Positions 7,444 through 61,581 of a stretch of DNA of 63,334 nt are shown one piece after another (positions within the stretch are counted from its first letter, which is position 1; each line of letters begins with the position of its first letter). The notes under the pieces were generated by a model. That model saw nothing but the letters and a program-made list of their open reading frames with translations. It did no database searches and was not told the DNA's origin. The position numbers were made by a program, and so were the translations under genes. The stretch covers positions 1 through 63,334 of IMG/VR virus record IMGVR_UViG_3300020393_000006. The stretch is one strand, 5' to 3'. Source of the DNA: a virus. Its lineage: Duplodnaviria; Caudoviricetes.

Positions 7444-7461
7444 TTTTTAGCGGAGAAACAA

Positions 7462-8008: not shown

Positions 8009-8019
8009 AGGAGATTGTT

Positions 8020-8985: not shown

Positions 8986-8987
8986 CA

Positions 8988-9060: not shown

Positions 9061-9065
9061 CTTGT

Positions 9066-9227: not shown

Positions 9228-9231
9228 TCCT

Positions 9232-41698: not shown

Positions 41699-42336
41699 TG
41701 GCCGATCCCGTATCAGCAACTATTGCTATCGGTAGTCAGGTTTTAGGCTCTGTAGCTGGAGCACGAGCTGCTAATGCTCAAGAAGCCCAGCGAAATCAAG
41801 CAGCACTTGATCAATTTAATGTACAACAGTACAATGCTGAAGCACAGGTTATCCAATCAAACATGCGTGGCCGATTGCGTTCTGCTGCAATTGCTAAACA
41901 AAATAGAACTATTGAGCGTAATTCTTTACGTGAACTTTATTTAAATTCTGAATCTTTGCAAATTGAGCAAAAAAATAGAAAGTCTGATTTAGTTCGAAAA
42001 AGCAATGAACATGCTGCAATGATTAATACTCGAACTGAGCAGTCTAATATACAATTAGATTCTGCTATGGCTGATCGATTACAAAATCTTCAAACAAAAG
42101 AACTGCTTAAAGGAGTAAGTGATACGAATAGGCAGTTTGGTATTCAGCGCCAAAACCTTATAGAATCTCGAAAAAAACAATTAGCTTCTCGTGGTGATGA
42201 AACTTTTGTAGCTCAGCGTTTTTATCGTGGAACTCAAGGTAACTTTTATGACAACAGTTCTGCTCGCATGACTGGAGCTCTTATTGAAAGTGCTGGCTCT
42301 ATAGCTGGCGGAATTTACGGATATAATAACCCATGA
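41698..42336 (+). CDS. Internal virion protein (gp14-like)
   Basis: MADPVS-type N-terminus, A/Q-rich, G/A-rich C-terminus. Confidence 0.65.
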   Translation: MADPVSATIAIGSQVLGSVAGARAANAQEAQRNQAALDQFNVQQYNAEAQVIQSNMRGRLRSAAIAKQNRTIERNSLRELYLNSESLQIEQKNRKSDLVRKSNEHAAMINTRTEQSNIQLDSAMADRLQNLQTKELLKGVSDTNRQFGIQRQNLIESRKKQLASRGDETFVAQRFYRGTQGNFYDNSSARMTGALIESAGSIAGGIYGYNNP

Positions 42337-45300: not shown

Positions 45301-45842
45301 TTTATGAAAAGGTTTTTACAGATTCTTTTCCTAATTTACTTGGAGATACACCTTTTCAACAAGTATGGGAAATTGCTTCAACAGGTAAAAATCCAGAAGA
45401 TGTAAGTTTTTTTGATCTTGTTAAAGCTAAACTTGTAGACGTTGATGGTGCTCCAATTAGAATAACACAACAAGAACTAAATAAAACTCAAATTGAAACA
45501 TTATCAGACGGATCTATAGAAATGACTTTTCCGTCTATTGGGCAAACTTTAAGGTATCGTCCTTATAGAAGTCTTAATGATATGGATTTTGCTCCTTTAG
45601 GTAGAGATACTGATCCAACAAGAATACTTGGTCCTGTTAAAACGCTTGATCCTACTCGTGCTTTTGAAGCTGCTGTAATGCGATCTCCGGTATTTGGAAT
45701 CCGTGCAGCTAATATTCAAGCTCAAGAAGAAGCTAATAAAAAGATTATTGAAAAGTATGATACAAACGGTGATGGCAAGCTAACTGGTGCTGAGCGCGAT
45801 GCTGTGAGGCGTGACAGAAATCAAGCAAAGCGAGGAGGATAA
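42333..45842 (+). CDS. Large internal virion protein (gp15-like) with C-terminal EF-hand
   Basis: Synteny and size; KYDTNGDGKLTGAER. Confidence 0.6.
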   Translation: MSQFQQPQDNRYIRPGVLDLGTGRQFDRLSVSTRGEGNIGTGAQGGGFVQGQSRVGTGLSGVDPLAQILGTVSKSVDNFMRADKLMAEAVDNQRNKELDKLEEQLQNAIALGEDSPEKMAEDHRNRVDEYYRKTGKLPKRGTSRKRFGEIRTKAEQSVRNFEFGNEFNEHLDKMSTFAGRTEDEIPEILSFRARYEGGPHEEKAIELTQQALNSAQARSQQAEDRDNARILANRFDQQLVTDKIISYENGKQVINVEKIISMASSGPNAFDLSDPDAIDKLGAMFISSIDISDMDQRSQDIYLREFSKFFAIRGREFIPAARQHLQELDRREQRIQHQAEWKESLLSGVVAPPTSTNPFVNLTNYLQSTATAFATLTPQAQEADRLDKMAAFMVTGTSRYDALPLDQRQKDDPSQRVMKIMGYLLQDSIDIADDLENPEDALQVMADARKAMPRTLDEAIMTGLIPLVDGQPPKGMDETTWNSLRKNMDQTMRAEQAKHIKPVFERGVEQATITGDFMQLGRLNNQLILLSGEADLGLAGPYGMLEDGNSIEILPVSQAGREFSDLALSLHRANNKMKGNISSSSRTHNMLKFGFDAEQGDQSSYVSIQEISDSPVMRATGKSMSDYLKANPDDVSGALAAVSGTINSIDYDPNNPINAFDETRAVIAALEQTSDVPATVAQAMVDAAMVVGYARTRGTENGDASIVVNSDLTGRIMSAMGSSTSSALTGENGIFIGTLYEALGTNPQIRKKVFGEHLDRAELTSNLIKRTGVTFDPEKYNWSGAIDIPVLERQQAVKGFDNLDDLASSSDQGYLSIADKVLKVALDPVGELSMPDGIPSELQEGLLAMHANVDEHMQTIRKQYGIPEEMTMGSFLSLVAPEIIDDLQITVASAFGDQNQYQQMMSDPEKMASVLSVGLEDAIQRSLAGKTVMGLQPYSDPEGSLAHLVREVGQENANPAAIADRVFDTSIHDSALGAGHEYVLGNEQVIYEKVFTDSFPNLLGDTPFQQVWEIASTGKNPEDVSFFDLVKAKLVDVDGAPIRITQQELNKTQIETLSDGSIEMTFPSIGQTLRYRPYRSLNDMDFAPLGRDTDPTRILGPVKTLDPTRAFEAAVMRSPVFGIRAANIQAQEEANKKIIEKYDTNGDGKLTGAERDAVRRDRNQAKRGG

Positions 45843-45844
45843 CT

Positions 45845-46123
45845 ATGTTTATGATTCCTGATGGAGATAATTGGCTTGATCCTGAAACAGGAGAAGTTAT
45901 AGATCTTCAAGGTTTTGAAGTTAATGGTAAGCGAGAAAGCCTTGAACGAACTGAAACGGGTTATCGAAAACACCCGCTTCCTGATAATTTAATTATAGCT
46001 AGAGGTGCTGCTCATGGTCAGCTCTCTGGCGAAGACTATCGTCTTTTAATAGATAGCGGATACGATGCAGTTAATATTGCTAATCGTAACTCACAATTTA
46101 TTTTAATGGGGATGAAAAAATAA
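45845..46123 (+). CDS. Hypothetical protein
   Basis: GAGGAGG RBS. Confidence 0.7.
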   Translation: MFMIPDGDNWLDPETGEVIDLQGFEVNGKRESLERTETGYRKHPLPDNLIIARGAAHGQLSGEDYRLLIDSGYDAVNIANRNSQFILMGMKK

Positions 46124-46190: not shown

Positions 46191-49100
46191 ATGATAATGT
46201 CTGATAAAGATAATTTATTTTCGGTCTTGGGAAATCTTCGTTCAGCAGATGAAACCCTTGACACTTTACGCAGAAAGCGTGAAATTACTGATAACATTTT
46301 AGAAAACAATAGTAAGCTTCAAGAGCAAGACCTTTCAGGCCAATACTGGTATGATGCTGAACAAGGTGCTTTTAAAGATGATGCCACTGATACTGATTAC
46401 GCTGATGCCGTAGAAGCTGAGTGGGATTTAGGAGCTGCTGATACTCCACGTGGATTAACTGGTGCTTATAATCGTAAACGATTTCTTGACCGATCTCAAT
46501 CTATGTTATCTCTTGCTCGTACTATTCGAGGAATTGATAATAATGCGACTTTAGATGCATTAGCTAAATCAGCTAAATACGACTATAGTGAGTCTGGTTG
46601 GGCTCAAATGGGTCGTGGTGCAGTAGGAGCTATTAACATATTTCAAGATATGACTGCTGATACTAAGCAGTTCAAAGAACAAGTTAAAGCTGAAATTGGA
46701 GCTGGTGTTCCACAAGATTTAGAATTACACTTCACTCCTGAAAAGTTTGTGAAGGCTGTTCGTGAAACTAGAGCTACTGCTTTAGCTATGGATGAATATG
46801 GCATTACTGCCGAAAGCTTAAAAGGCGTTTCTAATTACGCTGATGCTGTTGAAGCCTTATCTACCCAATTGTGGATGCGAGGTCGAGAGCAGCGAGCTAG
46901 TCAACAAGTATTATCTAAAAGCGAAAGTACGCTTAAATTTGCTGCTAACTTAGGTAATATGATTCTTCAAGATCCTGATATGGCTGCAGAAATTGGATTA
47001 GAAGTTGGATCAACAATTGCTGTTGGAGTTATTTCTGCTGGTACTGCTATACCTGCATTCCTTGCAGCTAGAATTGCCCGTCGTGGTGCTTCCTTAACTA
47101 AACAGGGTTTAAGTATTACTAAAATTCAACGAAAGTTGGAAAGAGGAGAAAGCATTACTCGAGGATGGGAAGCTGTAGCACGTGCTGCAGAAACAGCTCA
47201 TATGTATAAACCCGGTTTATCTACTGGTGGTAATATTTTTGAAGCTGTTGCTCGCTCCGGTAAACTTGGAACACGTGCTTCTCAAACAAGTGCTTTTATT
47301 GCAGGCCAAATGGTAGATGGATTTATAGGTGGAGCTGGTGCTCGCTATAGATCTAATGTATTTACTAATGCTGAAGCAGTAGGACTTTACGGAGATTATG
47401 CTGATTTAGTACCCGAAACTGACCGTCTTATGTTAGATGGAGGTATGGGTATGGTATTTTCTACTTTCTTAGGATTAGGCTTTCGATTTGGTGGCCGTAA
47501 ATTCTTAAATCAATTTAGAGAAAATAAACCACAACTAGGTTTTGATGACTTTGCTCAACAAAAACTTGATGCAGCAAGAACCGAAAAAGAACAACTTCGT
47601 GCTCTTTATGGGACAGATGATGTCTCTGGAGTTAAAGCTTATCAAGCTGCACGAGCAATGAATAATGATGCTACTCTTCAAATCTCTTTAGCAACTAATA
47701 AAGATTTAGGACCTGAACAACTTCCAGATTTTACTAAATTAATTGGAAACTTAAATCAAGGCATTCCAAGCATTGAGTTTAATTTTGCTCTTGGTCGTGT
47801 CATTGACAATTTAAAGGGTCGCACAATTAGTGAAGAGTCTTTAGCTCTTCGAGTTCTTGAAGATCCCGGATTTATTCGGGCCCTTGAAGGCAATGAACGC
47901 TTGACTCCAGAAGCTTTACAAAATAAAATTAAATATCAACGTGCACATCTTGCCCGTCTTACGGGAGAACGTGATGTTGATCCTGATATTGATAAAAAAA
48001 TAAATGAAGGCAAATCACGAGAAGAAGCTATAGCTGAACTTCGTGCTGAGCGTCTTGAAGAAATTAAACAAAAACAAGCTGAACTTGAAGAACGTGAAGC
48101 TATAAAAGCTGCTGAAGCTGAAGCTGAAGCTATTCGTAAAGCAAAAGCTGAAGAACAACGACTTAAAGAAGAAGCCGATAAAGCTGCTGAAGATGTTGTT
48201 AAGGCTAAAGCAGAAGCTGAAGCTGCTCGTAAGGCTGCTGAAGAACAAGAAGCAGAACTAGAAGCTAAAGCTAAAGAATCTCCTGAAGAAGAAATTGATT
48301 CAGGTCAGCTTCAGACTGTAAAAGCTAAAGCTGAAGAAGCTGAAACTAAAGTTACAGAAGCTGATAAACAACTTGCTGCTATTACGCAAAAACAAGAAGA
48401 GTTTGATTTTGATGCTGCTCTTAAAAAACAACAAGAACGGCAACGTGCTGATCGTGCTGTTGTTGATAGAGAACGTGAAGCTTTATCCCAACGAGAAGAA
48501 GATATTCGACTAGGCCGTAAAGGCGGAGCTGGTGGATTAGATGATACTGCATTAGTACATGTTGACTATCAAAAAACTCTTGAGCTCGAACAAAAGAAAC
48601 AAAAACTCGAAAGAGCTGAACGATACTTAGGTGAATCCGAAGCCCTTCAGCCTGACAATGCTTGGATCCGGCGTAACATCGATCCAGAGTGGGACCGAGA
48701 AGGTCCTGAAGTAGTTAGTCGTGCTGAGGTTAAAAAAATTATTGAGGCTCGAAAACAAAAACTTGAAGAAGAAGCTAAAGAAGTAACAGACCAAGACCTT
48801 GCAAATCAAGAGATTCTTGATAACGAAGGAGTACGTGCTGATGCTGAGCTTTTCCTTGAAGGACAAAAAGTCCAAACTCAAGCTTTACATAATGCATTCT
48901 TAGCTGCTGGTCGTGGAGACTTTACTGGAGATCCTGCAAGATTTAGATCTGTACGTGTGCGTACCGATGATCAAGCAGAAATTGATACTCTTGCTGCTCG
49001 TGAAGATGCTAAAAAAAGAAACGCTAAGTATAGCCGAGAAGACGACCTTGATTCTCTTAGAGAAGCTGAAGTTGGTCTGGCTGCGCTTCAGCGCCAACCT

Positions 49101-52100
49101 AGTCTTGGTACTAAGACAGAAGATATTGGCACTGCAACTTACGATTCACTAGCTGCTGTCTTTGCTGATACTAAGACTCTAAAGGACATTGATCTTGAAA
49201 ACGTCTTTGGAGAAGCCATCGTTGAAGGCACTACGCCTGCTACGATGCGATTCGACATGGATAAAGCTCGTCAGGTAATTCGTCAGCGTATTGATGCTGC
49301 TGAACCAATTCAGCGAAATCCTGATGCTCTTCTTACTCCTCAACAGCTCCGACTCCGTCAGGCGTCTGAGATTGCTGACTGGAGAGCATCTAACGCTGCA
49401 CGTAGGGCTGCTGATTCTGAGTCCGGCTTTGCTGGAGCTGCAGATGCCCAAGCGTGGGAAGACGGTTTCTGGTCCTCCTTGATGCTTCGTCTAAAAGAGA
49501 CAGGCAATAATAAAAATGCTGCATATCTTCGTAGCCCTCAGGCGCTTAAAGATTACATCAACAGTCAGTTTATTCCCTACATGCGAGGCGAGCTGATTGA
49601 TCTGGGCAACGGTAAGTCTGACTTTGTTACACCAAAAATGGCAGCATTTGCTATTGCAGATATTGTTCACGGTAAGTCAGATGGCCGTACCCGATATAAA
49701 ACTACTATTAATGAACTTAACGAAGAGACAGGAGTTACTACACAAAAAACTACTGACTCTGAGTTTATTGAACGCATATCCCATGCTCAGCCCGGAACTG
49801 ATCGAGAGATTGCTCGAGTCTTGGCTAAGCTAGAGTACGATGCTCGTATGGAAGCAATTGTTCGCCTTGATTTTGATAGCCCCGGCCAGCCCTCGCTGGA
49901 TCAAGCTATTAAGTTTATTAAGGATGGAAATCTGCAGCAGGATAATAATCGAGCTCTTAACCGTGAGGAGTTTGCTACTAGAGCTTTTTGGATTCCTCCT
50001 GCCCTTCGTACAAATCTTGACCGCATAGATGAAGATATTGATGCACGTATTGAACGAGTAACTAATGAATTGCTTGAAGAAGACTTTACGGCTTATGATA
50101 TTCTTCACGACGACTTTAAGACCCGTCAGGGGGATTGGGGTGTTGCGGTTGAAGATGCCAATGGTATATTCTTTAAAAACCATGGCGTTGCTGGTGGATT
50201 CCCTGTTGCTTCTGCTATGCCAAATCCTGAGGAAGGATACTCCTTTGGTATGGCTGTTCTTGATGCTCATATGCTCTTGCACCCACAAACGTGGATGGAT
50301 ACTATCTCTGCTCAGAAGCGGGGACAAATGTTACGTGATGAGATTACTGCATTAGAAGCAAAGGATAAACTGTCAGATGCTGAGGCTAAGCGCCTACAAG
50401 TTTTGAAGTCAGGCTCCTATGTTACTTCTATTGATGGTAGTCAAAACGGTGTGCGCCATGCGCATGCTATGGCCATGCTTGAAGGCGAGCAAGCTTTTGA
50501 GACTCTTGCTGAGTTTGTTGCTAAAGGAACTGGCAAAAAACGTGACTTTTATCAAGACCTTCGTACAACTACTCTTAAATTTTTCCAAGAAACTGATGAT
50601 CCCCGTGCCAAGATTTGGTTGAATCTTGGTTTGGTCCAAGACGCAGTCAAGGGCCGTAAGTTTGCTAAAAAACCTGTTATGGTTTTGCCCTATGGCGCAG
50701 GCAAAAAAGCTATTACCAACTCTATTCGAGATAGCCTAAAAGAATTACCTGCTGAAAAACTTCGTGAATTTGATGCTGAAGCAGATCGAATCGGCGCTAG
50801 TCGAGAAGAGCTTATTAACTATCTTGGAACAGAATGGTTTGGTAAACAACAAGAAAAGAAAGCTGGGCTTATCCAGAAGGCTCTTGACCTTCCTGATGCA
50901 GATGCTCAAATGAAAGTCATTATGGCTGATTCTTCAAAAACTGACCCGTATCGCCAGCTTGCTGACGAACCGGATCGTTCGGTTGCTTTGAAGGGTATGC
51001 TTGATGAAGCACAAAAGCTTTCTGAAAATACTGGAATGGATCTTGAAGAAGCATTTTATGCTGTACAAATTCAAACTCGAGCTTTAGCAATTACTCGAGC
51101 AGATGATATTCCTCTTGAAGCTGCAGCTCAAATGGCGCGTCGTCAATTTGCTCGTGAAATGAACTTGATGCATGAGGCTAAAAAGTCAGGAGATTATTCA
51201 AAGGTTATTGCAGCCGGTGAAGCTGGTGAAATGGGCTTTGTAGAAAACTCCCTTCGGGCAATGATGCGTTCTGAATATGTTCAGTCTGAGTCTGCTCAGG
51301 CTCGGGCTACCATGGATCAAACTGGTCAGGCTGGTGCTCGTATTCAACTTCCAGAAGAAGCTGAAGGCTCGTTCTTTGCTCAGCAGCTTATGGACTGGCG
51401 TAGCCGTATGGTTACTCCAAGAAACCAAGAGTTCTTTGCTAAGGGTCGTAAGTCTGAGCGGGCAGTAATGGATATTCTGCAAGTTCTAGAAGAAGGCGAA
51501 TCTGTTGTATACAAAACTTCTAAAGCTGAAGCTGAAGCTGATTTGCATCGAGTAGATGACGATTCTTTAACTTCTGACGAATGGTTTGCTAAACATATTG
51601 ATGAAGAAAAAACAATTGCTTCTGGAGTCTTTGGTCTTCGTGATGTAGAGCTAAGAGATCGTCCTCGTGGAAAATCTAAACGTCGCGTTCTTGAAGAAAA
51701 AGCTATGAGCCTTAAAGGTAAAGAGCTTGAAGCTGAACTGAAGCGTCTTAATATTAAAAACTATTCACGAATGAAAGCCGTTGAAAAACGTGCAGCTGTT
51801 CGTGATGCTTTAATTGAAGCTGAAAAGCTAAGAATTAAAAAGCTTGTAGTTAAGTCTGCTATGGCTGAAGCTGCTCCAGAGTTTGCTCCTCCTGTTCGTC
51901 TTGATGAAGCAGGTAATGTAGCTCAAATGAGTCGCTTAACTGAAGCTGAAAAAATGGATCGATGGGAAGCTCACTCTGAAGATATTCGTAACTCAAATTC
52001 TCGTGCTAGCGAAATCTATAGTAGATTAGATAAAGACGGGAAGAAAGCATACGAAAAAAACTATGGTCGACCAATGGAATCGCTTGTCGGTCCTAATGGA

Positions 52101-55100
52101 GAGCCTATGGTTCAAGAAAAGGTTATTACTTCTGAAGCCTTTGCAAAACTTGAAGATGCGGGTGAAGTTAGTCCTCAAGCTTCTCAAACTATGGGTGGTG
52201 CTTTAGGTACAAGACCTATTCATCCTACTGAAGCTACTGACATGATGCTTGGTGTTCCTGCTGTACGTGAGCTTGCTCAAAATCGCAGCATGGGACAGCA
52301 GGGTATTACTACTAAAACAAAAGATGGTAAAATCCAAAAAACAACCAAGCGTATTGAAATTGATGGAGAAGCTTCTGGACTTCAAGCAGTACGCCGAATT
52401 CAAGATGGAGGAGATATTGTTTCTCGAGCTGAGCGTCATCGTGTTACACATACAGATGAAACTCAGCTACCTATTATTGATAAATCAGAAGAAATGTTTG
52501 ATCCTGAGTTACTTGGACGAATGCCTGATGAAACTCGAGATTTAATGATTCAAACTACCCTTACCCGTCATGCTACTAAGTTTGGTCTTAGTGATCTTGT
52601 CGAGGCAGAAGAGTGGGGCGAAATATATGCTCACCTTGTGTGGCGTAAAAATATGGAAGCTTACGGTAAAGATCTTAAAAAGCTGCAAACTATGGCGCAG
52701 CGTAAAAATGAATCTTCCGAAGCTTATATGAAACGTCGCCAAGAAGCAGAAATGAAACTTTTTGCTAAGTGGGAACAAACTACACGAGAAACTCGAGAAG
52801 GATTTGAAAAAGCGGCTAATGATGAGTGGGATTCTCATAAGATTGATCCGTTTAAGAAAATCCAAACTGTAGATGCTCGTGATGCTGAGGGTAAACCTCT
52901 TACTCGTCGTGAAGCTATTCTTAGATCTGCTAAGTTGCGATCTGATGGTAGCTTACGCTCTGATGTAAGCGCAGCTCAACGTACTAATATTGATTTAATC
53001 GCTGGTGAATCTATTGATGGTGTTCGTCATGCTGGTTCAGAAATGCCTGCTCCAATTGAAATGTCTTCAATGTCTACAGTTGGCGGTCTTTTACCTATGG
53101 CAGGTCGAAGTGATAATAAAATTTATGCTTCTAATGGTGAAGATCTTGGATCTCAAGGCTTTGCTCGTTCTCGTAAGGCTAATGGCCAAGCAGGAGAGTA
53201 CGTAGCATTTGACGATCTTTCAGATAATGCAATTCTTAAAGTTCACTTTGTTCACTCAAAAGACCGAGCAGGAGCTACTGGTTCTGTCGGAATGAGAGAA
53301 GATATTTCTCTGCTTGCAGGCTTAACTACCTCTAATGGTAAAACTATGACTGTTGCAGAAGCTCGGGATTTATTGGCAAATGCTGGATCAGAATCTGGTG
53401 AAGGTTCTATTATTGCTGGCTCTAAAGGTAATGTACGTTTCTTTACAACAGATGGTATTGAAGTAATTGATGGTATTTTTGCTGGTCATAATATTCGTCG
53501 TAATGGTACTCGTAATGAACATTATTGGATTCTTCAAAACTCTGCAAACCGATTCTTAGGAGATCGCTTATCTGTTTCTGCCCTTACACAGCGTCCCGTT
53601 CGTAGGCATAAGTCTACTTGGGAATTAATGGATGATCGAGTTCGTAGGAAAACTGCAGGCACTCGCATTGCTAATGAAAATAAAGTTATGCTTGATTGGC
53701 TAAAGGAAAAAGATCCTAAGGCTATTAAGACCTCTTCATTCCTTGGTAATGTGATGGACTTAGGACAATACTGGGCTCGTCCCGAGTTTCGTGATAGGTT
53801 GTATATGTCTGAATATGATCGTACTCTTGCAGATGCTAAACAACGTTTAGGCATTGAAGCTACTGAAATTACTAATAATGTTCATAGCGAAACAATTACT
53901 AATCTTCGTAATTATATGTTAGATGTGCCTGAAGGAAAATTAGTTAGTGAGGCTACTATTAGATCTTTAGCTAATGAAAGCACTAGAACTCGACGTACTG
54001 ATTCTGATATTACAGGCGAACCTTCTCGAACTCTTGTTAGAACAGGAAACAATCGTAAAGATGTTGTAACAGATAATTGGATTACTAAGACTACTCCTGC
54101 TGAATTAGTTAAGGGTAAAAAACAGTTTTCTGCTGATCAAGTAAATGATCTTATTGCAGATCTTGAGGCTGATCAAGATTCATTTAATCCATCTATTAAA
54201 GATCCAATTGAAGCTCGAGAGGGTGATGAAGGATTCCTTGGTAGTCGGATTACTCCTAATGAGATTAAGTTTGCTAAGCAGATCGCAGGATTGCAGATGC
54301 TGTCGGGCAATGATCTTATGGTTATTGATGCCGATTACATTGCTCGCATGGCTCCAGCAACTATGGAAGGTATTAAAGCTTCTTCTGGTATGCGTGTTGA
54401 AAATATTGTGGTTTTAGCCAATGAAGGCATTGCCCACATGCGTAAGATGCGTAAGCTTGTCAGCTTGGCAAACCAAGATGGAGTTACTGGTCATGGTATG
54501 ACTGGTCTTATTTTGCGTTTAGCTTCTGATGGCGAGATTGATCTCGATAATGTTACTGATGCAACCTACGCTAGGATTAACCGAGCATGGCATGACCATG
54601 AAGTCGGCGGCGCTGATCGAGGTGCAGATAATCTTAATAGTCCTGAAGTTATTTCACATTACCAACATCAAATTAATAATGCTAAGAAGATCCTTGCCTC
54701 TGAAGATAAGGATCCGTTTAGCGACACTACTACTCGCACCTTCCAAGGTGACTTCGTAGACCAAGCAGGCCAGAAGCGTTCTCCTGAATACTTTATGGAA
54801 GCAGACAACTATAGTCGCCTCTCTGGAGAGCATGCTAGGTTCAATGACTTCTTAGAGGATTTGTTGGCTTCGGAAACCTTGGACTTGCCTCAAGTTCGTA
54901 TGCTTCGTGCTACGACTGCTCAAATGGATGGTCGTATCTTTGCTGGCCTAAAGCTTGAAGAGCTGACTGATGCTGACTTCCGCGCTCAAGCAAAAGAGCT
55001 AGGTCTTGGGTCTGCTAAGAAGGCACGTGCTCGTGCGTTGTCTTACAGTAAGGGAAGCTTTGGCTTGTCTCTACTCAAAGGACGCATAGGTCGAGATATC

Positions 55101-58100
55101 GATGCCGTAGATGTTATTCTTCACGAAGTCGGACACGTGTCTATTAACCGAATGCTTGCAGAAAACTCTCCTGAGCTTGAGGTTGCGCGTAACATGGCTA
55201 AGTCTGCTGAAGGTGAAGCTGCTCTCCGTGAAATGGTTAAAGTCATGCATGGTGGTAAGTTTACTCAAGAAGCTGCTAGACAGTTTAAATATTTTAAAAA
55301 AGATCCTGATGAGTTTTTAGCAGCATGGTTCTCTTATACTATGATGTCTCGAACTCTGGATGATAAGGCTACTATTGTTGCTGCCTATCGAGCTCATAAA
55401 GGCTGGGGCACTGCAATTGCTAATATTGTGCGTAAGATGGCATCATATGCTTATCGGCGTATGTCTGGATTCTCTAGAGCCCTTTCAGGCTTGGAGCCCA
55501 GCTACGGTCGTAAAATGAACGAGATCATGGACCACCTTGCTGGTCGTACTGATGTTGCTCCAATGGATAAGCCTAATAACTTTGCTGCTTTTCACGCAGA
55601 AGCTGATGGACGAGCTGCAAATGTTAAAGCAGCAGAAGCTGAAGTCGAAGCTCTTAGAGCTGCAGGTGTTGAAGAAAATGAGCCTCTTATGATAAATGCT
55701 TTAAAAGATCTTCAAACTGCAATTGATGAAGCGTTAGATACTTCAGATCCCGCCCACTTTGGTGGAGATGGATTTGGTGGTCGTACTCTTCGAGACTTCC
55801 TTGCTGAAAAAGTTGAAGAACGATTTACCGAAGATGGTATTATAAACTTTGGACGCATGGTTAAAGAAGACCCAACTGCTGCTGAACAATTTCTTGCTGT
55901 TCATCTTTTACCTAAATTGCAAGAAGGTCGTTATGCGAATGTAGAAGGCGTAACTCGATCAATGGTAGAAGACTCAAGAATGACTACTAGCGAAAAAGTT
56001 AGTTTACGTACTCGAATGGATAATATCATTTTATCTCCTTCAAATGCTTCACATACAGTTAATTCTAGAGTTCAGCTTCAAATTGGAGATACTAGATTTT
56101 CTCTTATGCAGCTTATATCAGAACTTGTAGATAACCATTCAGTGCTTACACAAGCTCGTTTAAATGGAAATCAATTTAGTACTCTTACTGCTCAAGCTCG
56201 AGCTTTAGAATCAAATATAGTTCGTCCTATGGCTATGCTAGATGATGAACTACGTATGGCTTTGGCTAAAAGCACTAATAATCTCCGTGGTAAATCACGA
56301 ACATTAGCTACTGCAGGAAATGAAGATTTTCAGATGCAGTTAGCAAGTCTTCGTGAAATAGCCGGTAAACGTAATCTTCCTAGAGGAACTAAGCTACGAA
56401 AAACAGCTGATGCAGAGTTTGAAAAACTTGATCCACAAGTTAAAGAAGTTGTTGATAAAATGACTAAACAATTTGCTAAAGCTTCGGGCGAAGTTAAATC
56501 TGCTGCTCGATTGGCTAATCTTATTGGACAACGACGTGCTGAAGCTTCTGGTCTTGTGCCTATTCGTTTACGTGCAGAACATATGACTGATAAATCTAAA
56601 GTTGGAGGATTTGGTCCTGAACTGACTAAACGATATGAATCTAGTATGCTTAAGTCTAAAGACTTAGATATGGATACATTAATTGGTGTTGGTTTACTTC
56701 CTTCTCCCGGTAAAGTTATTGATGAACAGGACTTATATACATATCTTAAAAATGCAGAAAAGAATGGATTTGTAGATAAAGACGCTCTTGAAATATTTGC
56801 TTCTTCTCCACGATTCCGCGAAACTGTTCAAGCTATTCGAAAAGGCGGATTTGCAGAAATTCCTGCTATGGATGAAATTCTTACAATTAAGGGACGAAAT
56901 CTCTATATGCGTGGTATTTCTGAAGGCACAGATGCTTTTACTTCTGATGGAGGTAAACACATAACTGCACGTTTTACAGAAGAAGTAGTTAAATCTGGAT
57001 CTGCTGCTGGTAAAGTATATTATCAAACTAATAGCTCTGGCGCTCAACTTCGTGCTCTTGGCCTTGGTCGTCGTGCTGGCTCTACCTCTTATTATTTTGG
57101 TGGAGATGCTTATATGGATGTAGATACACTTTTTGATGAACTTGGAGAATTTTTTGATTACGATGTGCGTACAGGTTCGGCAGCATTACAGCGCGGTATT
57201 GGAATGCAATCTGCTGATGCAGCTAATATGAGCCGTGCCTTTGAAGCAATTGGTATGAAAGTTCGCGGATTATCTGTTAAGTCTATTCTTGATCTTTTAG
57301 ATGATATGGCTTTACGTCGTGGTAATCATGCAGCTAATGATACAATGAAACACGGTGTAGATCATCTTCGTAAAGCGTATGAACGTTTAGGTGGTGGATT
57401 ACCTACTTATGAGCGAACTGGCAATATTGTTGCCGATGGTTTAGCTCGTAATGCAACTAATGTTGCAATGCTTAAATATGGTGGTAATCTTGGTGTAGCT
57501 ATGCTTGCTGAAACCGCAGTAACAACTATGGTTGATATTGCTCCTCGTATGCTTATTACTCCAGTAAAAACAATGACAATGGTTTGGAGATCTATGACTG
57601 AAAGTATGTCTCCAATTCGTAAAACTCAAGTAGCAAGACAGCTTCTTTATGGAATGCATATTGCTCGAGATACTGTTTCTATGCGTTCATTTGATAGAAA
57701 TGTAGATGACCTTGCAGTAGCTGATCCTAATACAGGCTGGCTTACTAATACATTACGTACTGGTGCTGGTCTTACCTCTAAGTTTTCTCTTGCCCCAACT
57801 GTGCAGACTTTTAACAAAGCTTTTGCTGCTTCGGGTGCAATGGATGATTTGCTTACCCACCTAGATTCTGCTGTGCGTATGCGCGAGCTGTTAGATGAAG
57901 CAGGCGGAGTTAAGAATAAAAAGGAATTCCAAGAGCTGGCTAAAAAAGCAGGCTTTGGGCGGAACTGGACTCTGGCTTTGCGTATGCAGGATGCAGGACT
58001 TCTTGATCCGTCAACAATCTCTCAGATTCGTGAGTTTGCTAATTCATCTGATGCTATGACTACTCGTATTCTTGATATTGATTCATGGTCAGATGAAGCA

Positions 58101-58928
58101 GCTAAATCTGCTGCTTCTCGTAGTTCTAAAGCTACTGAAATGGATACTGCAATTCGTGGTGTTCGCTACTTTATAGAAGAAGCAATTGCTAAGAATAACG
58201 TTGAACCTCGTGTTCTTGATATGAAGCTTACAAATAATACTGGTTGGTCTAAACTTATGGATGTTTTCTTATCATGGCCTCGTGCTTTTTATGCACAAAA
58301 ATCTGTTGTTCGTCCCGGCTCTGCATTTGCTGGAGGCGCTGGACATATTGCAGCTTTTTATGCAGCTCAGGCTACATGGGATGCCATGTATACCACGATC
58401 CAAGATTTGGCTCGAGGTGAAGATGAAGATAAAATCTTAAATGAAGTTACTAATGATCCAGCAGGTTGGTATATGTCGAAAGCTGCACGTATGCCTTTAT
58501 TTGGAATTTACTCTCAAGGTCTTGAAATGCTTGTAGATATAGGTCGTAATAAAGCTGCTAACTTAGGTGCTCCTATTGGATATCATACACGAGGTCAAGG
58601 AGATATTGACCTTGGATCAGCTCCAGTAATTGCAGCTATGAATAACTTTGCTACAACTATGATGGATGCTACAGAAGTTCTTTACGGAACAACTATTGGT
58701 AAAACTAATTCTCTTAGCACTAAAGATCCTCAAACTATGAATGCTTTTAATGGTATTTTAGATATGATTCCTTTAGCTAATATGCTTCCTGCTAAAGTTA
58801 TGCGAGATTTATGGCAAGAAAAACCTAATAGCATGAATGCTGCTCGTGGTCAAGCATATTACGAAATGCTGCAAATGAAACGTCAACACGCTTATTGGCG
58901 TAAGCAACTTATAAATAAATACAGATAA
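46191..58928 (+). CDS. 4245-aa multidomain internal virion protein with a T7/N4-family RNAP domain and a zincin motif (putative virion RNAP, RNAP-3)
   Basis: Motif A-like SIDGSQNGVRH (D~1415), RDFYQ, motif B RKFAKKPVMVLPYGAG (R~1489), HEVGH (~2978) with downstream EFLA; gp16-like position. Confidence 0.8.
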   Translation: MIMSDKDNLFSVLGNLRSADETLDTLRRKREITDNILENNSKLQEQDLSGQYWYDAEQGAFKDDATDTDYADAVEAEWDLGAADTPRGLTGAYNRKRFLDRSQSMLSLARTIRGIDNNATLDALAKSAKYDYSESGWAQMGRGAVGAINIFQDMTADTKQFKEQVKAEIGAGVPQDLELHFTPEKFVKAVRETRATALAMDEYGITAESLKGVSNYADAVEALSTQLWMRGREQRASQQVLSKSESTLKFAANLGNMILQDPDMAAEIGLEVGSTIAVGVISAGTAIPAFLAARIARRGASLTKQGLSITKIQRKLERGESITRGWEAVARAAETAHMYKPGLSTGGNIFEAVARSGKLGTRASQTSAFIAGQMVDGFIGGAGARYRSNVFTNAEAVGLYGDYADLVPETDRLMLDGGMGMVFSTFLGLGFRFGGRKFLNQFRENKPQLGFDDFAQQKLDAARTEKEQLRALYGTDDVSGVKAYQAARAMNNDATLQISLATNKDLGPEQLPDFTKLIGNLNQGIPSIEFNFALGRVIDNLKGRTISEESLALRVLEDPGFIRALEGNERLTPEALQNKIKYQRAHLARLTGERDVDPDIDKKINEGKSREEAIAELRAERLEEIKQKQAELEEREAIKAAEAEAEAIRKAKAEEQRLKEEADKAAEDVVKAKAEAEAARKAAEEQEAELEAKAKESPEEEIDSGQLQTVKAKAEEAETKVTEADKQLAAITQKQEEFDFDAALKKQQERQRADRAVVDREREALSQREEDIRLGRKGGAGGLDDTALVHVDYQKTLELEQKKQKLERAERYLGESEALQPDNAWIRRNIDPEWDREGPEVVSRAEVKKIIEARKQKLEEEAKEVTDQDLANQEILDNEGVRADAELFLEGQKVQTQALHNAFLAAGRGDFTGDPARFRSVRVRTDDQAEIDTLAAREDAKKRNAKYSREDDLDSLREAEVGLAALQRQPSLGTKTEDIGTATYDSLAAVFADTKTLKDIDLENVFGEAIVEGTTPATMRFDMDKARQVIRQRIDAAEPIQRNPDALLTPQQLRLRQASEIADWRASNAARRAADSESGFAGAADAQAWEDGFWSSLMLRLKETGNNKNAAYLRSPQALKDYINSQFIPYMRGELIDLGNGKSDFVTPKMAAFAIADIVHGKSDGRTRYKTTINELNEETGVTTQKTTDSEFIERISHAQPGTDREIARVLAKLEYDARMEAIVRLDFDSPGQPSLDQAIKFIKDGNLQQDNNRALNREEFATRAFWIPPALRTNLDRIDEDIDARIERVTNELLEEDFTAYDILHDDFKTRQGDWGVAVEDANGIFFKNHGVAGGFPVASAMPNPEEGYSFGMAVLDAHMLLHPQTWMDTISAQKRGQMLRDEITALEAKDKLSDAEAKRLQVLKSGSYVTSIDGSQNGVRHAHAMAMLEGEQAFETLAEFVAKGTGKKRDFYQDLRTTTLKFFQETDDPRAKIWLNLGLVQDAVKGRKFAKKPVMVLPYGAGKKAITNSIRDSLKELPAEKLREFDAEADRIGASREELINYLGTEWFGKQQEKKAGLIQKALDLPDADAQMKVIMADSSKTDPYRQLADEPDRSVALKGMLDEAQKLSENTGMDLEEAFYAVQIQTRALAITRADDIPLEAAAQMARRQFAREMNLMHEAKKSGDYSKVIAAGEAGEMGFVENSLRAMMRSEYVQSESAQARATMDQTGQAGARIQLPEEAEGSFFAQQLMDWRSRMVTPRNQEFFAKGRKSERAVMDILQVLEEGESVVYKTSKAEAEADLHRVDDDSLTSDEWFAKHIDEEKTIASGVFGLRDVELRDRPRGKSKRRVLEEKAMSLKGKELEAELKRLNIKNYSRMKAVEKRAAVRDALIEAEKLRIKKLVVKSAMAEAAPEFAPPVRLDEAGNVAQMSRLTEAEKMDRWEAHSEDIRNSNSRASEIYSRLDKDGKKAYEKNYGRPMESLVGPNGEPMVQEKVITSEAFAKLEDAGEVSPQASQTMGGALGTRPIHPTEATDMMLGVPAVRELAQNRSMGQQGITTKTKDGKIQKTTKRIEIDGEASGLQAVRRIQDGGDIVSRAERHRVTHTDETQLPIIDKSEEMFDPELLGRMPDETRDLMIQTTLTRHATKFGLSDLVEAEEWGEIYAHLVWRKNMEAYGKDLKKLQTMAQRKNESSEAYMKRRQEAEMKLFAKWEQTTRETREGFEKAANDEWDSHKIDPFKKIQTVDARDAEGKPLTRREAILRSAKLRSDGSLRSDVSAAQRTNIDLIAGESIDGVRHAGSEMPAPIEMSSMSTVGGLLPMAGRSDNKIYASNGEDLGSQGFARSRKANGQAGEYVAFDDLSDNAILKVHFVHSKDRAGATGSVGMREDISLLAGLTTSNGKTMTVAEARDLLANAGSESGEGSIIAGSKGNVRFFTTDGIEVIDGIFAGHNIRRNGTRNEHYWILQNSANRFLGDRLSVSALTQRPVRRHKSTWELMDDRVRRKTAGTRIANENKVMLDWLKEKDPKAIKTSSFLGNVMDLGQYWARPEFRDRLYMSEYDRTLADAKQRLGIEATEITNNVHSETITNLRNYMLDVPEGKLVSEATIRSLANESTRTRRTDSDITGEPSRTLVRTGNNRKDVVTDNWITKTTPAELVKGKKQFSADQVNDLIADLEADQDSFNPSIKDPIEAREGDEGFLGSRITPNEIKFAKQIAGLQMLSGNDLMVIDADYIARMAPATMEGIKASSGMRVENIVVLANEGIAHMRKMRKLVSLANQDGVTGHGMTGLILRLASDGEIDLDNVTDATYARINRAWHDHEVGGADRGADNLNSPEVISHYQHQINNAKKILASEDKDPFSDTTTRTFQGDFVDQAGQKRSPEYFMEADNYSRLSGEHARFNDFLEDLLASETLDLPQVRMLRATTAQMDGRIFAGLKLEELTDADFRAQAKELGLGSAKKARARALSYSKGSFGLSLLKGRIGRDIDAVDVILHEVGHVSINRMLAENSPELEVARNMAKSAEGEAALREMVKVMHGGKFTQEAARQFKYFKKDPDEFLAAWFSYTMMSRTLDDKATIVAAYRAHKGWGTAIANIVRKMASYAYRRMSGFSRALSGLEPSYGRKMNEIMDHLAGRTDVAPMDKPNNFAAFHAEADGRAANVKAAEAEVEALRAAGVEENEPLMINALKDLQTAIDEALDTSDPAHFGGDGFGGRTLRDFLAEKVEERFTEDGIINFGRMVKEDPTAAEQFLAVHLLPKLQEGRYANVEGVTRSMVEDSRMTTSEKVSLRTRMDNIILSPSNASHTVNSRVQLQIGDTRFSLMQLISELVDNHSVLTQARLNGNQFSTLTAQARALESNIVRPMAMLDDELRMALAKSTNNLRGKSRTLATAGNEDFQMQLASLREIAGKRNLPRGTKLRKTADAEFEKLDPQVKEVVDKMTKQFAKASGEVKSAARLANLIGQRRAEASGLVPIRLRAEHMTDKSKVGGFGPELTKRYESSMLKSKDLDMDTLIGVGLLPSPGKVIDEQDLYTYLKNAEKNGFVDKDALEIFASSPRFRETVQAIRKGGFAEIPAMDEILTIKGRNLYMRGISEGTDAFTSDGGKHITARFTEEVVKSGSAAGKVYYQTNSSGAQLRALGLGRRAGSTSYYFGGDAYMDVDTLFDELGEFFDYDVRTGSAALQRGIGMQSADAANMSRAFEAIGMKVRGLSVKSILDLLDDMALRRGNHAANDTMKHGVDHLRKAYERLGGGLPTYERTGNIVADGLARNATNVAMLKYGGNLGVAMLAETAVTTMVDIAPRMLITPVKTMTMVWRSMTESMSPIRKTQVARQLLYGMHIARDTVSMRSFDRNVDDLAVADPNTGWLTNTLRTGAGLTSKFSLAPTVQTFNKAFAASGAMDDLLTHLDSAVRMRELLDEAGGVKNKKEFQELAKKAGFGRNWTLALRMQDAGLLDPSTISQIREFANSSDAMTTRILDIDSWSDEAAKSAASRSSKATEMDTAIRGVRYFIEEAIAKNNVEPRVLDMKLTNNTGWSKLMDVFLSWPRAFYAQKSVVRPGSAFAGGAGHIAAFYAAQATWDAMYTTIQDLARGEDEDKILNEVTNDPAGWYMSKAARMPLFGIYSQGLEMLVDIGRNKAANLGAPIGYHTRGQGDIDLGSAPVIAAMNNFATTMMDATEVLYGTTIGKTNSLSTKDPQTMNAFNGILDMIPLANMLPAKVMRDLWQEKPNSMNAARGQAYYEMLQMKRQHAYWRKQLINKYR

Positions 58929-58937: not shown

Positions 58938-59279
58938 ATGGATTTTGAATACTCACCATGGCCTGATATGAATAGCTTCCTTGATTTTTTGGAAGTAGAC
59001 ATGGAAGAGCCTACTCCTGAGCTGGATATGTCCGGCGCAATTGGGAGCGTTATGGAAGAGTTTTCATCTGATGCTAATATCTCAGCTATGGCTGGGACAG
59101 CTCCGGCTGTCCCAGTTGTGCCTGAGACTCAACCCCAGCCTGAAGTTGTATCAACTACAGCTCCAATGGCACCTAAGCCATTGGCTGGGGCGGGAGCTCC
59201 AGATGGGCTTTCACAATTAACACAAACGGGGCAACCAGCTGCAGAAGATTCTAGAGCTGATTCGCTTTTCGGAGAATAA
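58938..59279 (+). CDS. Acidic, Pro/Ala-rich hypothetical protein
   Basis: AAGGA RBS. Confidence 0.65.
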   Translation: MDFEYSPWPDMNSFLDFLEVDMEEPTPELDMSGAIGSVMEEFSSDANISAMAGTAPAVPVVPETQPQPEVVSTTAPMAPKPLAGAGAPDGLSQLTQTGQPAAEDSRADSLFGE

Positions 59280-60984: not shown

Positions 60985-61210
60985 TTTTGACAAAGAAAAA
61001 AAGCAGGGCTTGCATGGTTGGTTTTCCCGCAATCGCGGAAAGGGTTGGATTGACTGTAAGACTGGCAAACCTTGCGGGCGCAAGTCTGCTAAGGGTGGAA
61101 GTAAACGTCCTTATCCGGCGTGTCGACCAACTAAAGCTATGTGCACTGCTGCAAAGAAAAAGAAAAAGGGTCCAGCTCGAATCTCTTGGAAAAAGGGAGC
61201 TAAAAAGTGA
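60977..61210 (+). CDS. Small basic Cys-containing protein
   Basis: GLHGWF…WIDCKTGKPCGR…YPACRP. Confidence 0.7.
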   Translation: MANFDKEKKQGLHGWFSRNRGKGWIDCKTGKPCGRKSAKGGSKRPYPACRPTKAMCTAAKKKKKGPARISWKKGAKK

Positions 61211-61581
61211 AGCGTAGAGATCCAGCTAAAGGTACAGGCAAAAAGCCAAAGGGTTCTGGCCGTAGATTATATACTGACGAAAATCCTAAGGATACTGTAC
61301 CAGTTAAGTTTAGTAGCGTGAGTGACGTTAAAAGAACACTAGGTCAAGCTAGTTTTAAGTCTAAGTCTCACAAAAGACAATCTCAAATTATTAATCTTAT
61401 TGAACAACGCTCAAGAGTTGCTAAAGCTAGAACAAAAGATCCAGCCAAGAAACGAAGTTTAACTGCTGCTCATTCTTATATTTCTAAAAAGAAAGAAGCA
61501 AGTAAACGCAAAACCCAACTCATGAGAAAAAACAAAAAGAGTCCAGCTCGGGTCTCTTGGAAAAAGGGAGCTAAAAAATGA
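61170..61581 (+). repeat. ~40-bp direct repeat encoding near-identical C-termini (PAR[I/V]SWKKGAKK)
   Basis: 61170-61210 vs 61541-61581. Confidence 0.85.
61207..61581 (+). CDS. Small basic protein
   Basis: GTGKKPKGSGRRLYTDENPKDTV. Confidence 0.7.
   Translation: MKRRDPAKGTGKKPKGSGRRLYTDENPKDTVPVKFSSVSDVKRTLGQASFKSKSHKRQSQIINLIEQRSRVAKARTKDPAKKRSLTAAHSYISKKKEASKRKTQLMRKNKKSPARVSWKKGAKK

Follow-up and report, generated by a model that had tools for sequence, protein, structure and literature searches.

To our knowledge, virion-carried RNA polymerases (RNAPs) of the T7 family are characteristic of a single family of phages, the N4-like Schitoviridae. In the domain layout given for N4 gp50 in the parts of two reports that concern it (PMC13434306; PMC5512222), an N-terminal membrane region precedes the T7-family RNAP, a zincin-like domain with an HExxH motif and a large helical C-terminal domain. 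The passages on N4 in Iyer et al. (2017; PMC5512222) describe its virion RNAP (vRNAP) as combining a T7 RNAP module with a zincin-like domain and link the latter to lethal factor, which is also among the best structural matches of the zincin described below. Passages of Lokareddy (2024; PMC11445570) report suppression of Cys in the N4-like ejection operon, and place hydrophobic segments N-terminal of the polymerase core in DEV gp71, an arrangement also seen in the protein studied here. The record of N4 vRNAP contains no Cys in 3500 residues, in line with what the initial annotation of our locus stated about this enzyme, and all of the Schitoviridae vRNAPs sampled (9/9) lack Cys.

The passages of Hardies (2016; PMC4819975) on internal virion proteins of the T7 type argue that they can host domains directed to the cytoplasm, the N4 polymerase included. 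Other phages also have virion-borne RNAPs. In phage P23-45, an RNAP is reported to be fused to the tape-measure virion protein and to enter with the DNA. In the crAss-like phages, too, the polymerase is part of a virion protein and enters with the DNA. The polymerases of P23-45 and the crAss-like phages are two-barrel RNAPs, whereas the protein described here resembles the T7 family.

A giant cysteine-free protein in a T7-like phage

The window is the whole virus record IMGVR_UViG_3300020393_000006 (63,334 nucleotides), a 63-kb marine phage genome which is rated complete. Its portal, capsid, tail-tube, terminase, RNAP, primase-helicase and DNA polymerase genes match PHROGs of T7 type, and the best matches of TerL are T7-like phages (≤ 39% identity). 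The features that frame the analysis are as follows.

46191..58928, + strand: giant ORF, 4245 aa, 0 Cys
41698..46123, + strand: three upstream ORFs of 212, 1169 and 92 aa, 0 Cys each
58938..59279, + strand: downstream ORF of 113 aa, Cys-free by count

Counting the translation gives 0 Cys in 4245 residues for the giant protein, as had been judged by eye. The other virion proteins of the phage contain 19 Cys in 4158 residues (0.46%); at this rate the probability of finding none in 4245 residues is 3.6e-9, and the absence of Cys is far from chance. Together with its neighbours the giant ORF forms a block of five consecutive ORFs (5831 aa) without Cys that follows the terminase gene. The order TerL-212-1169-92-giant-113 is kept in two related loci (L001 and L003), and in two others (L004 and L005) the 92-aa ORF is also found upstream of the giant gene. 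The 212-, 1169- and 92-aa ORFs have no family matches and are candidate partner ejection proteins. The lack of Cys and the place of the gene in this block after the terminase gene are, at the level of sequence, consistent with an ejected protein.

In an alternative reading, the giant multi-enzyme protein would be made late, stay unpackaged in the cytoplasm and act, for example, as a late transcriptase or as a polyprotein cut by its zincin. In favour of this, the block follows the terminase gene, whereas in T7 the ejection genes lie between the tail-tube and fibre genes. Against it stand the 5831 aa without Cys, compared with 2.36% Cys in the early and replication proteins, the phage's cytoplasmic enzymes; the known ejected proteins, which are equally Cys-free; the N-terminal hydrophobic segments; and the parallel with the layout of N4 gp50. 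We regard the unpackaged protein as improbable.

Ten full-length or near full-length relatives were found (25–57% identity), each Cys-free, and no Cys occurs anywhere in the 16 family members and fragments (P0001–P0016, P0001 being the giant protein itself). The T7-like RNAPs of about 800 aa found alongside them (P0017, P0019 and P0020) differ in this respect, with 10–18 Cys. The family is rare, with 14 representatives at E ≤ 0.001 among 1.84 billion. The giant gene has no megablast match in 50,697 phage records, no cultured phage carries the protein by megablast and tblastn, and in 185,579 genomes (one per prokaryote species) 162 pattern matches yielded no confirmed case. The whole protein has no phmmer match among PDB sequences at E ≤ 1 and no PHROG at E ≤ 0.01; its single match in NCBIfam is at chance level (E 0.13), and hmmscan at E ≤ 1 returns PF00940 alone.

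In principle, faulty assembly or gene calling could have produced the long reading frame, from several merged genes or a chimeric contig, and one relative is apparently split into proteins of 2869 and 1432 aa. Nine relatives of 4070–4995 aa from different sources nevertheless share one uninterrupted layout, a protein identical to the giant protein (P0002, 100%) is listed on eight contigs, and conservation extends over the entire length; an artefact is therefore highly improbable. The split falls in a poorly conserved segment.

54582..54674, + strand: poorly conserved linker, aa 2798-2828, at which the gene of a relative is split

The alignment of the 2869-aa protein (P0008) ends at residue 2798 of the giant protein, while those of the 1432-aa protein (P0142) and of P0141 begin at residues 2828 and 2827; the longest contig given for P0008, and likewise for P0142, has 62470 bases. 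The alignments suggest that the gene of one relative is divided just before the zincin domain, and this is the only hint towards the self-processing, with release of an RNAP, that the initial annotation had envisaged.

The polymerase core

The significant similarity to T7-type RNAPs is located in the second quarter of the protein.

50415..50744, + strand: T7-type RNAP core, aa 1409-1518, with motif A, DFY and motif B (hhalign)

Motif A is DGSQNG (residues 1415–1420), DFY occupies residues 1452–1454 and motif B, RKFAKKPVMVLPYG (R-x3-K-x7-YG), residues 1489–1502; D1415 and R1489 are 74 residues apart. These motifs and their spacing, as well as HEVGH and EFLA in the zincin, are found in the translation where the initial annotation had put them, and its proposed resemblance to T7-family RNAPs is borne out by profile comparison. 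Against a T7-like RNAP profile, hhalign aligns 97 columns with T7 residues 531–659 (probability 96.4%, E 1e-9) and pairs DFY with the DIY of T7. N4 mini-vRNAP, run as a control against the same profile, has an equal score (E 1.3e-9) but over 297 columns. The core is also detected by hmmsearch in a 13-sequence set (E 1.1e-13) and by tblastn to phage RNAPs (E 1e-8). Among ten family members, three match phrog_414 (best E 2.3e-13), the PHROG that the phage's own 834-aa RNAP also matches, and five match Pfam RNA_pol (families reported at E ≤ 0.05). The PF00940 score of the giant protein is 16.7 bits when the whole protein is run through hmmscan and 22.3 bits in a six-frame search of the genome, the latter over the Pfam gathering score of 22 bits. 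The language-model neighbours of the protein belong without exception to clusters of phage RNA_pol or N4 vRNAP (scores only ~0.8), which we take as a lead for the polymerase module. The alignments support homology to T7-family RNAPs for the stretch that holds motifs A and B: with T7 RNAP, the two motifs and the DxY segment between them align at high confidence. The two proteins differ in that T7 RNAP has 12 Cys and the giant protein none, and in that significant alignment is restricted to the equivalents of T7 531–659, so that the match to T7-type RNAPs is confined to ~110 aa of the module.

In T7 RNAP the Asp of motif A and the Arg, Lys and Tyr of motif B bind NTP and metal. These four residues and DFY are invariant in 10/10 relatives at 25–57% identity, and the Gly of motif B (G1502) is kept in at least nine of the ten. 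The invariance of the motif A and B residues therefore argues for selection on catalysis. Any one motif taken singly is weak evidence, because 2000 shuffles of the giant protein produce HExxH in 118 cases, R-x3-K-x7-YG in 57 and DWRxR in 25.

Arrangement of the remaining polymerase motifs

Outside the core the motifs of T7 RNAP and PF00940 are, unlike in those enzymes, rearranged or unrecognised.

51393..51407, + strand: DWRSR, aa 1735-1739, T/DxxGR-like and out of canonical order (conservation, hhalign)
53241..53264, + strand: VHFVHSKD, aa 2351-2358, resembling T7 NFVHSQD (780-787), which precedes motif C

The D, W, R and R of DWR[S/T]R, which lies downstream of motif B, are invariant in 10/10 relatives. 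The motif aligns with MDWRGR of T7 (residues 420–425) and the QG segment that follows (E 0.03 for the whole region), and the sub-region alone gives E 7.4e-5 with a probability of 62%. At the canonical place upstream of motif A no conserved T/DxxGR is present: HDDFKTR (1306–1312) loses its Arg in P0009 and P0013. DWR[S/T]R is the sole invariant T/DxxGR-like motif of the family, and it follows motif B instead of preceding motif A. In VHFVHSKD, V2351, H2355 and D2358 are invariant in 10/10 relatives; the hhalign match to NFVHSQD is not significant (E 0.084–0.27), and by eye P0009 has THAKDATILRKVV at this site where T7 has VHSQDGSHLRKTVV. No hhalign alignment to the C-terminal polymerase parts of T7 or N4 was obtained for motif C, which holds the second catalytic Asp. 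The HD position of T7 aligns with non-acidic residues, and of the two candidates in a hairpin D2421 is Asp in 8/10 and D2427 in 7/10 relatives, neither being invariant. An AlphaFold2 model of residues 1191–2390 from a seven-row alignment has low confidence (pLDDT 46.1, pTM 0.29), and Foldseek with this model returns helical-repeat noise and nothing at E ≤ 0.001.

An internal duplication of the polymerase region was considered and rejected (hhalign of residues 1100–1800 with 1801–2620, E 0.36). A repeat of motif A or B beyond DWRSR was likewise rejected, since none of the Asp residues from 1761 to 2358 is invariant; EIDGEASGLQ near residue 2060, noticed by eye in the translation, is missing from the family consensus at that place.

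These features raise the question of whether the module still transcribes. It could be vestigial, or could serve an ejection protein in binding nucleic acid or pulling DNA, in which case early transcription would depend on the host enzyme or on the phage's two ordinary RNAP genes. Such a module would fit the failure to find motif C or any invariant acidic candidate in the expected hairpin, the T/DxxGR-like motif being out of order, the match of only ~110 aa and the two complete single-subunit RNAP genes that the phage has already. The Asp of motif A and the Arg, Lys and Tyr of motif B have, on the other hand, been kept in every relative down to 25% identity, with the Gly in at least nine of ten, and DWR[S/T]R, H2355 and D2358 are invariant as well. 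The two free RNAP genes would themselves need transcribing first, and sigma-70-like promoters are not above chance at the left end of the genome (four found against 5.5 expected in positions 1–9500, a weak test, as the consensus used may not be that of the host). We consider a non-transcribing module rather unlikely.

The zincin domain

The region around HEVGH was predicted by AlphaFold2 (residues 2801–3180) with a pLDDT of 74.2 and a pTM of 0.71.

54798..55559, + strand: zincin fold of lethal-factor/PPEP type, aa 2870-3123 (AlphaFold2, VIA-align)
55122-55136, + strand: HEVGH, aa 2978-2982 (sequence)
55311-55313, + strand: E3041, the downstream Glu, at which EFLA starts (sequence)

In the model three strands are followed by the HExxH helix and then by the helix with the Glu (model helices 170–188 and 239–256). 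VIA-align against 48161 chains gives Z ≥ 8 for two chains only, lethal factor (Z 9.9, r.m.s.d. 4.1, 176 aa) and PPEP-3 (Z 8.1). In a second search of 1000 chains, two of which were left unaligned (size or absence), the 31 best chains all have the lethal-factor/PPEP fold (Z 6.8–10.1), after which Z drops to 5.7; over both searches lethal factor scores 9.9–10.1 and PPEP 8–9. Foldseek with the same model has a best E of 0.04 and nothing at E ≤ 0.001. The zincin-like domains of polyvalent proteins (Iyer et al., 2017) and the zincins of lethal factor and PPEP-1 (M34-type) share with the model a three-stranded sheet followed by HExxH and, on a second helix, a Glu; sequence identity between the lethal-factor/PPEP structures and the giant protein is 9–17%. 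HExGH and the EF pair, with H2978, E2979, H2982 and E3041, show no variation among the 12 sequences that cover the region; H2978 and E3041 are 63 residues apart. The model thus supports a zincin fold at HEVGH, as the initial annotation had proposed, and the domain is a predicted metallopeptidase.

Flanking segments

Four further segments lie on either side of the polymerase and zincin.

46980..47069, + strand: hydrophobic Gly/Ala-rich segment, aa 264-293 (Kyte-Doolittle 19-aa mean 1.83)
47427..47483, + strand: second hydrophobic segment, aa 413-431 (Kyte-Doolittle mean 1.39)
48018..48530, + strand: Ala/Glu/Lys-rich stretch, aa ~610-780 (composition)
55560..58925, + strand: C-terminal ~1120 aa, no recognised family, with a hydrophobic segment at aa 3767-3785

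Residues 264–293, which precede the polymerase core, are a candidate for a membrane segment. The Ala, Glu and Lys richness reported for the stretch at 610–780 is confirmed (residues 600–800 contain 19% Ala, 21% Glu and 12% Lys); the coiled coil that was read into it is suggested by this composition. The C-terminal ~1120 aa have no match in Pfam, PHROG or NCBIfam.

Relationship to N4 gp50

N4 gp50, DEV gp71 and the giant protein are all giant single polypeptides (> 3000 aa) without Cys. The order of parts described above for N4 gp50 (N-terminal membrane region, T7-family RNAP, HExxH zincin-like domain, large helical C-terminal domain) is shared with the layout proposed for the giant protein, the distance from HExxH to the C-terminus is almost the same (1267 aa here, 1272 aa in N4), and smaller Cys-free proteins are encoded alongside both. 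The giant protein is the longer by 745 aa. It is also set apart from N4 vRNAP by a T/DxxGR-like motif downstream of motif B and by the lack of a recognised motif C, and N4 has an N4-like backbone, whereas the present genome is T7-like and has two further single-subunit RNAP genes.

The four N4 vRNAP families PF21769, PF21894, PF21624 and PF21867 are carried by all 120 N4 relatives listed, but none of them is detected in the giant protein (E ≤ 1) or in ten family members (E ≤ 0.05). Whole-length hhalign to N4 vRNAPs gives a best E of 0.006 (probability 6%), which covers only DFY to motif B. An N4-family alignment was built from nine named phage records, because the first homologue search gave only relatives at 66–99% identity. 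When four domains of the giant protein are compared with four of this alignment, the lowest E of each row falls on the diagonal, at 0.0071 for the region of residues 264–293 with the N-terminal region of gp50, 0.00098, 0.043, and 0.038 for the C-terminal part with the C2 domain of N4. Each of these colinear matches is weak singly; the Z row is a near tie (0.043 against 0.045) and the remaining off-diagonal values are 0.11–0.81. The four-part layout of N4 and its total avoidance of Cys recur here in a T7-like backbone, in a protein beyond ordinary sequence recognition of N4 gp50.

Relationship to the T7 internal virion proteins

Both phages have, in the structural module, a run of genes of small, intermediate and very large size: gp14, gp15 and gp16 in T7 and the block of the giant protein here. 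T7 gp15 and gp16 contain no Cys by our count; in both phages the large members lack Cys, and the giant gene is the largest of its Cys-poor run. The giant protein is three times the size of gp16, and its block follows the terminase gene, in contrast to the T7 position between tail-tube and fibre genes. No similarity to gp15 or gp16 is detected when the N- and C-terminal parts are compared by hhalign with single sequences, which is a weak test (E 0.18–0.54), and hmmscan finds no transglycosylase match in the giant protein.

Proposed function

We favour, with a probability of roughly 0.6, the reading that a T7-like marine podovirus packs the product of the giant ORF inside its virion as an ejection protein, which also carries enzymes for the host cytoplasm. 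By analogy with the systems above, the best reading is that a phage outside the N4 group ejects a polyvalent protein resembling N4 vRNAP, in which a membrane-interacting region, a T7-family single-subunit RNAP, a lethal-factor-type zincin and a large helical C-terminal domain would follow each other from the N- to the C-terminus. This is in essence the interpretation of the initial annotation, of which the T7-RNAP homology of the motif A to B core and the zincin fold hold, while motif C of the polymerase has not been identified. On the model of N4 and DEV, the capsid would contain a few copies, together with the neighbouring Cys-free proteins, and these would be expelled unfolded through the tail and periplasm; such expulsion is the proposed reason for the lack of Cys. 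The ejected proteins would help to build a conduit for the DNA, after which the genes that enter first, probably those of the GC-rich left end, would be transcribed by the polymerase module. We infer packaging, ejection, polymerase and protease activity, the templates and any self-cleavage.

If the protein is packaged and active, the injection of a phage's own polymerase would extend to a second, marine lineage, and a polymerase core with an unusual motif order would become open to structural study. The gp16-type origin of N4 gp50, as put forward in passages of two reports (PMC4819975; PMC11445570), could then be examined on a concrete example.

A bolder combination of proposals is, taken jointly, doubtful. 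The phage may run a cascade free of host RNAP, in which the ejected giant enzyme acts first and is followed by the two free single-subunit RNAPs; the ejected core may depart in its arrangement from all known enzymes of T7/N4 type, with T/DxxGR after motif B and a non-canonical motif C; and the protein, occupying the place of T7 gp16 in a T7-like genome, may be a living intermediate between T7 and N4 ejection or a second, independent invention of a virion polymerase.

A stretch of the genome outside the giant gene (positions 4800–7600) occurs, at least in part, in marine or estuary metagenome runs from at least nine studies, of which the four best-matching runs were aligned.

A cysteine-free protein with a T7-type polymerase core

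The ORF at 46191-58928 (+) is translated from the window without interruption into a protein of 4245 aa (here called the giant), and a residue count confirms the initial annotation's claim that it is free of cysteine (0/4245 aa). The chance of such an absence is 3.6e-9 at the rate of this genome's other virion proteins (0.46% Cys; early and replication proteins, 2.36%). The motifs named in the same annotation (DGSQNG, DFY, motif B, HEVGH and EFLA) were all found exactly as described there.

Sequence features of the giant (aa numbering; gene on the + strand; motifs by residue search, segments by hydrophobicity)
264-293, hydrophobic segment
413-431, hydrophobic segment
1415, DGSQNG (motif A)
1452, DFY
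1489, RKFAKKPVMVLPYG (motif B)
2978, HEVGH
3041, EFLA

Ala, Glu and Lys are abundant in aa 600-800. A lone motif in the giant is weak evidence, because shuffled versions of it (n = 2000) also yield HExxH (118), R-x3-K-x7-YG (57) and DWRxR (25); weight comes from conservation and from profile or structure comparisons.

In a whole-protein Pfam search the giant matches RNA_pol alone (16.7 bits, under the 22-bit cut-off), and a six-frame search of the genome gives RNA_pol 22.3 bits at the same place. Five of 10 family members match RNA_pol and three of 10 match phrog_414 (best E 2.3e-13). A small T7-like profile, whose members were T7, two RNAPs of the window and three T7-like RNAPs of about 800 aa (P0017, P0019 and P0020), was aligned by hhalign to aa 1409-1516 with a probability of 96.4% (E 1e-9); the match spans T7 residues 531-659, from motif A through the DxY segment to motif B. 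The control, an alignment of nine N4 mini-vRNAPs, matched the same profile at 96.4% (E 1.3e-9), but over 297 columns, T/DxxGR included. Invariant in the 10-sequence alignment are D1415, G1416, N1419 and G1420 of motif A, D1452, F1453 and Y1454 of DFY, and R1489, K1493 and Y1501 of motif B. Because of this profile match and the invariant motif residues, the homology of the A-B core to T7-type RNAPs, with selection on its catalytic residues, is well supported at the level of sequence, in agreement with the T7-family motifs noted initially.

The module departs from the canonical pattern in three ways. The canonical place of T/DxxGR is occupied by HDDFKTR (1306-1312), whose Arg is lost in distant family members. 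An invariant DWR[S/T]R (1735-1739) lies C-terminal of motif B rather than at the canonical place, and aligns with T7 MDWRGR and the next segment (E 0.03 for the whole region; E 7.4e-5, 62%, for a sub-region). VHFVHSKD (aa 2351-2358), with invariant V, H and D, resembles T7 NFVHSQD (780-787), the segment ahead of motif C, in a non-significant match. Motif C was not found in the giant, the residues opposite the T7 HD pair being non-acidic; in a hairpin near its expected position D2421 is Asp in 8/10 sequences and D2427 in 7/10. The polymerase region has no internal duplication. AlphaFold2 modelled aa 1191-2390 poorly (pLDDT 46.1, pTM 0.29), and the model gave no structural match. The language-model neighbours of the giant all belong to clusters of phage RNA_pol or N4 vRNAP; with scores near 0.8 they are only a lead. 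The nucleic-acid-binding domain Rho_N is matched by three of 10 family members (best E 4.8e-7); the giant itself is above E 0.05, and a similar LKGKELEAELKRLNIKNYSRMK stretch is seen by eye at aa ~1840-1875 (window ~51700-51800).

Relatives of the giant

Six relatives, 2869-4584 aa long, came from a word-seeded search through 5.8 billion proteins. HMMER, run in full against 1.84 billion representatives, returned only 14 proteins at E <= 0.001 and added three giants of 4070-4995 aa (identity 29-33%). Each of the giants and fragments P0001-P0016 has 0 Cys; the T7-like polymerases of ~800 aa that match the motif region only have 10-18. No relative beyond the polymerase motif region was found in cultured phages (50,697 phage records and tblastn), nor any giant relative in prokaryote genomes sampled at one per species. 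In one relative the giant gene appears to be split into two ORFs: the alignment of P0008 (2869 aa) ends at aa 2798 of the giant, and that of P0142 (1432 aa) starts at aa 2828. The longest contig given for each is 62,470 bases long, and we infer that the two are adjacent. A further fragment, P0141 (254 aa, from a different contig), likewise starts at aa 2827.

A predicted zincin domain

All 12 sequences that contain the region keep HExGH and the downstream EF unchanged. The model of aa 2801-3180 (pLDDT 74.2, pTM 0.71) has three strands, a helix carrying HEVGH and a later helix carrying E3041. Foldseek returned weak rows (best E 0.04), the top ones all anthrax lethal factor or PPEP-1; on re-inspection every one of rows 1-31 has the lethal-factor/PPEP fold (Z 6.8-10.1), and Z falls to 5.7 at row 32. 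In an independent alignment against 48,161 representative chains, only two reached Z >= 8: the catalytic domain of lethal factor, which came first (Z 9.9, rmsd 4.1, 176 aa), and then PPEP-3 (Z 8.1). As modelled, the zincin fold around HEVGH is real and makes this part of the giant a predicted protease, which bears out the zincin proposed there initially. Iyer et al. tie the HExxH region of N4 gp50 to the lethal-factor family (PMC5512222).

Comparison with N4 gp50 and a probable role in ejection

N4 gp50, the virion RNA polymerase (vRNAP) of coliphage N4, has 3500 aa and 0 Cys, with TRVGR at 1421, motif A at 1556, motif B at 1663, motif C at 1948 and HELVH at 2228. HExxH lies 1267 aa from the C terminus in the giant and 1272 aa in gp50; eight further Schitoviridae vRNAPs are Cys-free, each with 1000-1350 aa between an HExxH and the C terminus. 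In sequence the two families hardly overlap: BLASTP and hhalign of the giant against N4 vRNAPs matched motif B or DFY-motif B alone, and the four Pfam families of N4 relatives had no match in the giant. In a 4x4 domain-wise hhalign matrix the lowest E of each row is on the diagonal (N-terminal 0.0071, polymerase 0.00098, zincin 0.043, C-terminal 0.038); the zincin row is a near tie (C2 cell 0.045 vs 0.043), and the remaining off-diagonal cells range from 0.11 to 0.81. The zincin alignment pairs HEVGH with N4 HELVH and DEFLA with NEFMA. The 2026 paper on the N4 structure divides the C-terminal domain into a subdomain with HExxH (2124-2375) and a helical one of 110 kDa that has no known relatives (PMC13434306), a layout that matches that of the giant. 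The giant fails the sequence-based tests for membership of the N4 vRNAPs, so that membership is not demonstrable; we read its architecture as the same as theirs, perhaps with very distant common descent.

According to Lokareddy et al. (PMC11445570), Cys suppression marks the three N4-like ejection operon proteins, which are equated with T7 gp14, gp15 and gp16, and a membrane segment is predicted N-terminal of the polymerase core in the N4-like ejected protein. Neither T7 gp15 nor gp16 contains Cys, against 12 residues in T7 RNAP. Hardies et al. (PMC4819975) argue for internal virion proteins as hosts of cytoplasm-directed domains, including the N4 polymerase. Because of the Cys suppression, the hydrophobic segments and these N4/T7 ejection-protein parallels, the best explanation is that the giant is an ejected protein with an N4-like role (probability about 0.6). 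The initial interpretation is partly supported: the core of the polymerase and the fold of the zincin stand, ejection is retained at this strength, and self-processing is a conjecture.

Gene neighbourhood

The window is the entire virus record (63,334 bases; completeness rating 100%). Its T7-type family matches comprise an 834-aa RNA polymerase (phrog_414), primase-helicase, DNA polymerase, exonuclease, portal, scaffold, major capsid protein, tail tube A and B, fibre and large terminase; the nearest terminases among 50,697 phage records are those of T7-like phages (identity <=39%). The ORFs 3' of the terminase gene encode, in order, 212, 1169, 92, 4245 and 113 aa, a block of 5831 aa with 0 Cys. 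This order, terminase included, is kept in two related contigs (L001 and L003), where comparison with window 39947-46123 and the giant gives 98% identity for the terminase, 32% for the 1169-aa protein and 56% for the giant; by these identities the ejection block changes, through divergence or exchange, at a far higher rate than the packaging gene.

The Cys-free 92-aa ORF (45845-46123), immediately 5' of the giant gene, has no family match; it also precedes the giant in four related contigs (L001, L003, L004 and L005; identity 27-61%) and looks like a conserved small partner. Two copies of a 74-nt direct repeat (61157-61230 and 61528-61601; 82% identical), each ending at the start codon of a small ORF, resemble a regulatory and leader element that has been duplicated.

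The left end

A possible role of the giant in early transcription can be set against the left end of the genome, whose first 6 kb has 56-58% GC vs about 40% elsewhere. That this end is an assembly chimera is ruled out, because contigs bridge or overlap the GC-rich/AT-rich boundary (5900-6200) in all four marine metagenome runs compared: single contigs span it in X4 and X5, from different studies, and separate contigs overlap across it in X1 and X3.

Within 1-6000 there are ten + strand GC-rich hairpins followed by TCCTKKTTGA (chance expectation 0.02), mostly with an 11-bp stem, a 3-nt loop and compensatory stem changes; several copies are followed by ATCTGGCAAT..AGAAAGGATCAC..ATG, each ahead of a small ORF. 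These hairpins could be promoters for the giant/virion polymerase, terminators or RNA-processing sites. In 1-9500, terminator-like hairpins are above chance (32 found vs 7.8 expected) and sigma-70-like sites are not (4 vs 5.5). The GC-rich end also holds a third RNAP-like gene (3644-5692; 682 aa, 14 Cys), whose product matches Pfam RNA_pol (E 9.3e-23) and shares 27% identity with the 834-aa RNAP across 222 aa.

One marine run carries a 12-to-47-letter variant at 6031-6044. The early region has, in a non-coding interval at 1917-1948, an inverted repeat with perfect 15-nt arms (CTTTATACCCTAGGT/ACCTAGGGTATAAAG) 2 nt apart.
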